Origin: Acidobacteriota bacterium
Lineage (GTDB): Bacteria > Acidobacteriota > Thermoanaerobaculia > Multivoradales > J023
Direction: 5' to 3'
DNA: 64,000 nucleotides
NCBI GenBank assembly: GCA_029263395.1
Contig: JAJCXO010000184.1
Location: forward strand, 39,838 to 103,837
Notes under the pieces: generated by a model
The model's input: only the letters and a program-made list of their open reading frames with translations
Told to the model about the DNA's origin: nothing
The model's database searches: none
Part shown: positions 62,690 through 63,080 of the stretch, piece after piece
Position numbering within the stretch: the first letter of the stretch is position 1
Layout of the letters: each line of letters starts with the position of its first letter
Program-made: the position numbers and the translations under genes

Positions 62690-63080
62690 GTCGTGTGATC
62701 TGAACCGTAACATCACATCTGAGTTGCCGTTAACCGTAATCAGCTGGACCCACATCACGGCCACAGCTCTAGCAACCGAGATCGGCCCAAACAGCATCAC
62801 GGTCACACACACAGCAGCCGTGATCTTCTAAGGCGACATCACGGCCACAGTGCTTAGAACCGTGATGACTAAACCTAAGATCACGGCCACATACCGTGTA
62901 ACCGTGATGAGTTAAGTCGACATCACGGTTACATCATCGGTAGCCGTGATCCGCAAAATGATAATCACGGCCACTTTCCGTACAACCGTGATTTCTCTAG
63001 GTGACATCACGGTCACTCAACTTTAGGCCGTGATGTCAACTCACGGTTAAACTTTTCGTGGCCGTGATTTCGACATTCGG
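62690..63080. repeat. array of 8 palindromic units (ATCACGGYYAC-N9-10-RRCCGTGAT) at about 42-bp spacing (REP/BIME-like or binding-site array)
   Basis: Read directly. Units lie at 62761, 62803, 62845, 62887, 62929, 62971, 63013 and 63047, with degenerate copies at 62690-62760. Arms are conserved, the 9-10-nt centres vary, and the 12-nt linkers are semi-conserved (..TAAG..GAC). The array sits between convergent genes. Confidence 0.85.

Follow-up and report, generated by a model that had tools for sequence, protein, structure and literature searches.

The 64,000-nucleotide stretch analysed here (hereafter the window; positions 39,838 to 103,837 of contig JAJCXO010000184.1 from an Acidobacteriota bacterium) contains, close to its right-hand end, an array of eight tandem palindromic units. 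The array occupies the gap between two convergent genes, with the plus-strand stop codon at 62644 and the minus-strand stop codon at 63109, in agreement with the convergent intergenic location reported in the initial annotation of this DNA. The upstream gene encodes a predicted secreted protein of 425 amino acids (aa) with no Pfam or NCBIfam family; the visible, C-terminal part of the downstream gene weakly matches TIGR03788 (sortase target, VIT/vWA type; E = 3.7e-6). The array itself (62754-63068; Table 1) is about 330 bp long, all of it non-coding, and consists of 29-bp units of the form ATCACGG-YY-AC-N9-RR-CCGTGAT, in which the half-site is ATCACGGYY. A pattern scan of the window for ATCACGG-N15-CCGTGAT gave six perfect matches (62796, 62838, 62880, 62922, 62964, and 63006), while none occurred across 100 dinucleotide-preserving shuffles. 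Units 1 and 8 have a single arm mismatch each, at 62754 (CCGAGAT) and 63040 (CTCACGG), respectively. Seven units start exactly 42 bp apart (six intervals), and the eighth is displaced, starting 34 bp after the seventh. Half-sites alternate in orientation, their centres being 22 bp apart inside a unit and 20 bp apart over a linker. Tandem Repeats Finder (TRF) also reports an 84-bp double-unit super-repeat in the array.

Judged by these pattern matches and by the identities of arms and centres given below, the eight-unit palindromic array with conserved arms and variable centres that had been noticed earlier is real, as is the degenerate lead-in, which consists of one unit at 62712 in the same register. 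Several dimensions require correction. The unit has the described form and its length is exactly 29 bp, rather than about 30 bp; the period is not 41-43 bp but exactly 42 bp for seven units with a 34-bp offset for the eighth; the linkers, described as semi-conserved and 12 nt long, measure 13 nt and share 31% pairwise identity, against 25% at random. The arms were said to pair over 7-9 bp: the 7-nt arms pair throughout, but positions 8-11 do so in about half of the units.

Conservation within the array was calculated as pairwise identity over the seven in-register units, for which 0.25 is expected at random. It reaches 0.98 at the 14 arm positions and falls to 0.43 in the 11-nt centre (much of this coming from positions 10-11, which are A and C in every unit; position 12 has 0.52) and to 0.315 in the 13-nt linker. 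No indels shifting the register were found among these units. As linkers and centres are near-random and yet no indel has moved the register, we infer that arm sequence and spacing are both under selection, rather than pairing as such. No compensatory changes were seen in the arms, where both deviations are one-sided and pair-breaking, and the covariation score of the arms was lower than that of shuffled controls. At positions 8-9 a pyrimidine on the left is matched by a purine on the right, so that both half-sites read ATCACGGYY; four units have C·A here and the other four U·G, the wobble switching strand between units, and the array has no strand-consistent G·U bias. This pattern fits half-site recognition, not a stem requirement. 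The perfection of the arms amid randomised neutral positions argues that a cognate binder persists in this genome, and even with a binder other than the one proposed below the array would be a clean natural case of selection on half-site sequence and helical phase only.

Gene content was assessed by Pfam scans of essentially all window open reading frames (ORFs) of at least 150 aa. The genes are typical of chromosomal housekeeping: tripartite ATP-independent periplasmic (TRAP) and resistance-nodulation-division (RND) transporters, sulfatases, hybrid kinases, S-adenosylhomocysteine (SAH) hydrolase, and chorismate mutase. Cas, ParA/ParB, ParM/ParR, Rep, and transposase families were absent from these ORFs; one MreB/actin-like gene was found at 9888-10919, 52 kb from the array. 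The cumulative GC skew drops almost monotonically with no sustained reversal, and there is no origin or terminus signal in the window. Within the 64 kb, no unit with two or fewer mismatches occurs in intergenic DNA outside the array. Near-matches at 30374-30401 and 36491-36541 were rejected as extra copies, both being intragenic (in a sulfatase gene and in the N-terminal part of a pseudopilin gene, respectively). A blastn search of the array against 72,556 plasmid records and a phage collection returned no similar DNA; taken by themselves, the centres are so short that matches to them would carry little information.

In arrays of clustered regularly interspaced short palindromic repeats (CRISPR), direct repeats of about 23-50 bp are separated by unique spacers as long as the repeats or longer. 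The variable segments of the present array measure only 11-15 nt (centre) and 13 nt (linker), and its conserved parts are two 7-nt inverted arms; this, together with the absence of cas genes from the window, upholds the earlier statement that the array is not CRISPR. A coding repeat (42 bp corresponding to 14 codons) is ruled out by the presence of at least four stop codons in every one of the six frames of the array within 337 nt. An array of promoters of the extracytoplasmic function (ECF) or σ54 type was dismissed on sequence inspection by eye only, as the spacing and motifs do not fit. No σ70-like promoter was detected at the array, with the limit that a σ70-type scan may not apply to this host. 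Rfam gave nothing at gathering score, the best E-value of 0.07 being to an animal microRNA model (noise). The element has the organization of a tandem protein-binding array and, on the 64 kb covered, does not qualify as CRISPR, as a cluster of repetitive extragenic palindromic (REP) elements or bacterial interspersed mosaic elements (BIMEs), as an iteron origin, or as a member of an Rfam family.

Arrays with the same arms were sought in other genomes by a scan for three consecutive half-sites, ATCACGG-N13-17-CCGTGAT-N11-15-ATCACGG, which matched 18 loci in species-representative genomes and 25 in metagenomes. Four of them are true same-arm arrays (L004, L011, L025, and L038; Table 1). Most of the 18 and 25 matches were discarded as chance half-site triplets inside coding sequence (deacetylase, sulfatase, and others), and L009 is apparently a duplicated gene end. 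Three AT-rich metagenomic contigs (L026, L035, and L036) carry clusters of a 12-bp palindrome, CCGTGATCACGG, which contains the same 7-mer as the window arms; their architecture is different and they are probably unrelated. In the other arrays the half-sites of a unit are 19-23 bp apart, and each array holds strictly to its own period of 41, 42, or 44 bp. The tetranucleotide signature of L011 correlates with that of the window at r = 0.93, which matches the level of window pieces compared with the whole window; by composition, the window would thus probably belong to an acidobacterial lineage related to that of L011. The L038 array (2562-2829), flanked by an IS21-like transposase gene on one side and an aconitase-like ORF on the other, comprises six 44-bp copies of CTGATCACGG-N16-CCGTGATCAG; there, the linker-centred palindrome CACCGTGATCAGAAG-N2-CTTCTGATCACGGTG forms the stronger dyad.

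Two of these arrays adjoin genes of the ABATE/zf-CGNR family (DUF1470; hereafter CGNR). In L025, about 140 bp separate the end of the array from a downstream gene that encodes both an ABATE (PF07336) and a zf-CGNR (PF11706) domain. The L004 array lies between divergent genes and begins about 30 bp ahead of an ABATE gene truncated at the end of the contig, whose product is homologous to that of the L025 gene (tblastn E = 1.6e-11). In the reverse test, loci were picked solely by the CGNR protein and their flanks were then inspected. Arrays, dyads, or half-sites were found beside these genes as well (Table 1). When TCAC…GTGA dyads were scanned for (arms of 7 nt with no more than one mismatch, 24-33 bp overall), 18 were detected in 9.3 kb of CGNR-gene flanks versus zero in the other 40.9 kb of these loci; with L004 and L025 excluded, the counts are 13 and 0. 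At least one such dyad is present beside the gene in eight of the ten CGNR loci of the subfamily, and seven of the eight window units pass the same scan. All TRF arrays with a period of at least 25 bp in the CGNR loci are those adjoining the CGNR gene. The periods are 42 bp in the window, L004, L045, and L055, 41 bp in L046, and 44 bp in L038. With its dyads, conserved arms, and a period within 41-44 bp, the window array has the sequence features of what we provisionally treat as a CGNR-associated class of phased TCAC-dyad arrays; adjacency to a CGNR gene is lacking in the window.

Table 1. Features of the array locus in the window, and related arrays and dyads in other loci.
Feature	Coordinates	Strand	Description	Source or setting
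Upstream flanking gene	61367..62644	+	425-aa predicted secreted protein	Window; stop 68 bp before lead-in unit
Lead-in unit	62712..62740	.	Degenerate, ATCACAT-N15-CCGTAAT, in 42-bp register	Window
Unit 1	62754..62782	.	ATCACGGCC-N11-AACCGAGAT; one pair-breaking mismatch in right arm	Window
Unit 2	62796..62824	.	Arms perfect	Window
Unit 3	62838..62866	.	Arms perfect	Window
Unit 4	62880..62908	.	Arms perfect	Window
Unit 5	62922..62950	.	Arms perfect; plus-strand stem reaches 11 pairs	Window
Unit 6	62964..62992	.	Arms perfect	Window
Unit 7	63006..63034	.	Arms perfect	Window
Unit 8	63040..63068	.	CTCACGG-N15-CCGTGAT, 34 bp after unit 7 (5-nt linker); pair-breaking mismatch in left arm	Window
Downstream flanking gene	63109..64000	-	C-terminal part visible, runs off window end	Window; stop 41 bp after unit 8
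L004			6 units, 42-bp period	Metagenome-assembled genome (MAG) 'bacterium Bpl_12'
L025			Units on 42-bp register	Metagenome
L038			At least 6 units, 44-bp period	Metagenome
L011			Degenerate array, 41-bp period, ends in 1.5 perfect units	Acidobacteriota MAG OFTM268
L045			About 5 units RTCACGYS…CGTGAY, 42-bp register	Upstream of CGNR gene
L046			7 units TCACAAG-N12-CTTGTGA, 41-bp period	Upstream of CGNR gene
L048			ATCACGG-type units	Upstream of CGNR gene
L055			5 units, unrelated arms CCCGCCTGC-N8-GCAGGCGGG, 42 bp; arms conserved, centres variable	Upstream of CGNR gene
L052			42-bp × 4 direct array with AATCAC	Just downstream of CGNR gene
L047			Dyad TCACCACCT-N6-AGGTGGTGA and an extra half-site	Downstream of CGNR gene
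L053/L054			Single dyad TCACCAGTCA…TGACTGGTGA	CGNR start codon
P0041 group (10 contigs)			No array, only ATCAC-N7-ATCACGG	CGNR start codon

CGNR proteins form a very large bacterial family, the subfamily concerned alone having 1,766 relatives at E <= 1e-15. The one crystal structure of the family in the literature searched, PDB 3H0N (Jann_2411), is a dimer with a C-terminal treble-clef zinc finger, for which the authors propose DNA binding, and an N-terminal ABATE domain, for which they propose ligand sensing (PMC2954205). A dimer with two treble-clef zinc fingers, proposed to be a ligand-responsive DNA-binding regulator (PMC2954205), is the candidate binder of the array; the link between CGNR proteins and TCAC arrays is drawn from the comparisons of this analysis only. 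The CGNR genes of two groups adjoin genes for ECF-type sigma factors (L047 2310-2885; L056-L065, e.g., L056 2742-3605), and this neighbourhood fits the 2009 structural paper, according to which the family co-occurs with sigma factors. In L045, the CGNR gene is followed by a tRNA-like sequence (4610-4690) and an integrative element (4873-7897) encoding RepA_C, a pentapeptide protein, and a tyrosine integrase. CGNR genes of Streptomyces plasmids, which represent a distant branch (30-34% identity) and are divergent from major facilitator superfamily (MFS) genes, have short intergenic regions with no TCAC arrays; in viral contigs neither the array nor a CGNR relative was found.

We propose that the window array is a cluster of eight tandem dyad sites on double-stranded DNA for one sequence-specific dimeric protein, most likely an ABATE + zf-CGNR protein encoded outside the window, and give this proposal an even chance of being correct. 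Taken separately, action as an array of protein-binding sites on DNA appears probable, and a CGNR regulator as the binder comes close to, or slightly below, an even chance. Half-sites flip orientation every 20-22 bp (roughly two helical turns) and complete dyads follow one another at 42 bp (four turns), so all sites would face the same side of the helix and adjacent dimers could contact each other. A dimer whose two DNA-reading heads are set apart could bridge one dyad; dimers touching on one face would therefore bind cooperatively and with high avidity over about 330 bp, and such contact between phased dimers would account for the selection acting on phase in addition to sequence. Beside CGNR genes elsewhere, the arrays probably serve as highly cooperative auto-operators. 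The window array, between convergent genes, is instead likely to serve either as a sink that acts in trans and keeps the regulator in reserve, or as a roadblock of bound protein insulating the two converging transcription units. More tentatively, TCAC-dyad arrays phased at 41-44 bp may in general be previously unknown targets of ABATE/zf-CGNR proteins, with orphan arrays, distant from any CGNR gene and flanked by convergent genes, acting as trans-acting high-avidity platforms that would buffer free regulator or form a protein roadblock or a chromosomal landmark; we regard this generalization as possible but rather doubtful.

A number of observations weigh against a CGNR-bound DNA array. No CGNR gene was detected in the 64-kb window by tblastn or a subfamily hidden Markov model (best E-value 0.12), which leaves a CGNR-free stretch of 62.7 kb on one side of the array and 0.9 kb on the other; nor was one found in L011 or L038, where only 8 and 3.2 kb, respectively, are visible. 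Unlike most related arrays, that of the window is situated at convergent 3' ends with no promoter. The L004 and L025 loci were found through the arm sequence and carry the corresponding ascertainment bias, the CGNR sample is small (about nine independent gene groups), and the ten contigs of the P0041 CGNR group have no array, just two ATCAC half-sites at the start codon. The automatic name given to the family by the Joint Genome Institute (JGI) is 'predicted RNA-binding Zn ribbon-like protein', and the literature searched contained no DNA- or RNA-binding experiment and no nucleic-acid target for it; searches for the arm sequence, 42-bp repeats, and CGNR targets likewise returned nothing relevant. 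As for the array itself, the minus strand folds better as RNA than the plus strand (-164 kcal/mol, z = -11.7 vs shuffles, compared with -135 kcal/mol, z = -8.7), and three terminator-like hairpins with T-rich tails are present on the minus strand versus 0.7 expected.

One departure from this proposal retains the phased cooperative dyad array and assigns it to some other dimeric DNA-binding protein of the lineage, the CGNR link not extending to this genome. We consider this rather unlikely. It would agree with the lack of a CGNR gene in the window and in the 8 kb around the L011 array, which comes from the closest genome by tetranucleotide signature, as well as with the unrelated arms of a second 42-bp dyad array in the window (21566-21750, described below), by which phased arrays are not bound to one recognition sequence. 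It is opposed by the arrays that abut CGNR genes in L004, L025, and L048, in which 7-nt arms, N14-16 centre, and 42-bp period are identical to those of the window, and by the recurrence of TCAC half-sites at eight of the ten CGNR loci. A plasmid-type centromere (sopC/parC-like) or an iteron replication origin is very improbable, for all the architectural similarity to sopC of the F plasmid, whose twelve direct 43-bp repeats each contain a 16-bp inverted repeat bound by SopB (PMC3177203). The window array presents clustered dyads, eight of them at a 42-bp period, but no Par or Rep gene accompanies them in the window, the gene content is chromosomal, the GC skew is near-monotonic, and nothing similar occurs in the plasmid records. 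Furthermore, related arrays have no par or rep neighbours, except for the unrelated integrative element in L045, and the units are 29-bp dyads, whereas an iteron origin has 17-22-bp direct repeats beside a rep gene, together with an AT-rich unwinding region and DnaA boxes. The suggestion of an iteron or centromere-like array made in the initial annotation therefore fails in its strict sense, there being no rep, parA, or parB in the window and no GC-skew inflection, while the broader idea of an array for a DNA-binding protein is the best supported of those put forward, given the maintenance of arms and 42-bp spacing, the recurrence in other taxa, and the CGNR neighbours. A functionless minisatellite grown by slippage and tandem duplication, or an assembly artefact, is the least credible explanation: many intergenic tandem repeats are present, and the 84-bp super-repeat shows growth by duplication, yet neutral decay would hit all columns alike, whereas the arms stand at 0.98 and the linker at 0.31 with no indels, and same-arm arrays exist independently in other genomes.

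Explanations at the RNA level start from the strong folding of both strands, which is inevitable for repeated inverted repeats, so that an RNA-level role is possible with no specific support from folding. The hairpin-array RNA suggested earlier is possible but unsupported: any inverted repeat would give such folding, and neither covariation, nor a consistent G·U bias, nor an Rfam match was seen. In one version, transcripts of either or both convergent genes would carry the array at their 3' end, its hairpins terminating transcription or protecting mRNA from 3' exonucleases in a REP/BIME-like manner. Its convergent intergenic position, the folding z-scores, and the minus-strand terminator-like hairpins all favour this version, which we nevertheless find unlikely. 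A stem needs pairing only, yet the arms are invariant across units and distant taxa with no compensation; 15-nt loops would sit on 7-bp stems; exact 42-bp spacing is meaningless for independent hairpins; and the related arrays are found in front of genes rather than at 3' ends. Proteobacterial REPs are present in hundreds of dispersed copies, have small loops on long, imperfect stems, and owe their mobility to REP-associated tyrosine transposases (RAYTs). The window array resembles REP/BIME clusters in its short palindromic units gathered in an intergenic gap, which for REPs too is often bounded by convergent genes, but has 7-bp stems, 15-nt centres, and strict 42-bp phasing. One account of REPs describes tagged GTAG/CGTC heads (PMC3733652). 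The units of the window start with ATCACGG and not with GTAG/CGTC, and with neither another intergenic copy in 64 kb nor a transposase, the earlier candidate of a BIME-like cluster of REPs is not supported within the window.

Another version, which we consider distinctly unlikely, takes the array as a multi-hairpin small RNA or untranslated region (UTR) element that binds the CGNR protein through RNA, as a sponge of the CsrB/RsmZ kind; the arrays by CGNR genes would then be autoregulatory 5' UTRs. The JGI name, the eight repeated hairpins with an invariant stem sequence, and the placement of arrays ahead of CGNR start codons, just after the region where the promoter is likely to be, speak for it. 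Against it stand the G·U wobble, which has no consistent sense-strand bias in arrays of known orientation, the lack of an Rfam match and of a promoter-like site (in the σ70-type scan, which may not apply to the host), the position of the L004 array between divergent genes, and the strict 41-44 bp period of each array, which suits duplex phasing better. CsrB has a conserved GGA motif in loops at irregular spacing. The two systems have in common many repeats of a short recognition element in hairpins at an intergenic locus, but the window array conserves the stem and the exact spacing.

With binding of a dimeric, probably CGNR, protein to DNA retained as the preferred explanation, the closest known system by working principle is a centromere-like or operator array such as sopC. 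Both have a tandem period of about four turns and in each unit a dyad site for a dimeric protein; in sopC many dimers load side by side into a large nucleoprotein complex, and the same is proposed for the window array. They differ in that sopC units are conserved over their whole length with a compact dyad (7-bp arms, 2-bp gap), whereas only the arms, 15 bp apart, are conserved here, and in that sopC adjoins sopAB on a plasmid, while the window array is on a chromosome and no par genes accompany it within the 64 kb. Type Ib/II partition operator or iteron arrays, which double as centromeres (e.g., parC of R1 bound by ParR), are made of direct iterons of 11 bp and have a motor gene (ParM) next to them. 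Their layout of multiple phased sites directly upstream of the binder gene, with cooperative autoregulation, is matched by L025, L045, L046, and L055; the 29-bp dyads at 42 bp and the absence of a motor gene set the arrays apart from parC, and the window copy is beside no regulator gene.

The neighbourhood of look-alike arrays and CGNR genes supplies this family with its first candidate DNA target. If TCAC-dyad arrays are indeed CGNR sites, a testable motif would follow, namely RTCACGG-type half-sites separated by about two helical turns, as would an unusual binding mode with six to eight dimers phased on one DNA face. Arrays of such size are known mainly from plasmid centromeres, and the window array would be a chromosomal counterpart of these, devoid of a partition motor. 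A chromosomal motor-less array located off promoters would raise the question of whether decoy or roadblock arrays tune bacterial regulators.

Other tandem repeats were found in the window. Short arrays at 17279-17343, 18539-18609, and 49952-50023 consist of direct repeats of 21, 15-16, and 14 bp, respectively, in 5' or intergenic regions, and contain two, three, and three copies of CACGGT/ACCGTG (chance about 1% per unit); AACACGGTYC is common to two of the three. Three of five other prominent arrays thus share the CACGGT core, for which the chance is about 1e-5 by our own estimate. The arm sequence had been reported to recur in the three short arrays: the core CACGGT/ACCGTG is present there, but ATCACGG is absent. 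One repeat family seeded across the genome, as suggested earlier, consequently receives weak support from the shared CACGGT and is countered by the direct 14-21 bp organization lacking ATCACGG; a factor or origin common to the short arrays and the main array is possible on these sequence similarities. A second array with a 42-bp period (21566-21750; 4.4 copies, 88% matches) has a dyad, GGTCGAGC-N9-GCTCGACC, unrelated to the main array, and lies upstream of a gene for a GNAT acetyltransferase (20919-21437, minus strand) and after the stop of a gene for an unknown secreted-looking protein (21839-22519, minus strand). A near-perfect 37-bp × 4.7 tandem array (35705-35877, 97% matches), with one degenerate extra copy at about 35910, is immediately beside tRNA-Lys(ttt) (35981-36056, minus strand).

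The sole retrievable homologue of the gene upstream of the main array (P0002 in L044, 49% identity) has no ATCACGG array; directly after its stop, at L044 1612-1683, there is a different tandem repeat of 27 bp (CGCGCTGGCGCGATAAAG…, 2.7 copies). The gene downstream of the main array shows no homology to the VWA gene upstream of the L045 array. Elsewhere in the window, two fusions of a Ser/Thr kinase and a receiver domain (12115-13464 and 40333-41775) have opposite domain order, and two tandem hybrid histidine kinases of the 7TMR-DISM type are encoded at 44110-49842. Three successive small paralogous genes at 31955-33554, with no other phage gene nearby, each encode a phage tail collar domain (PF07484).

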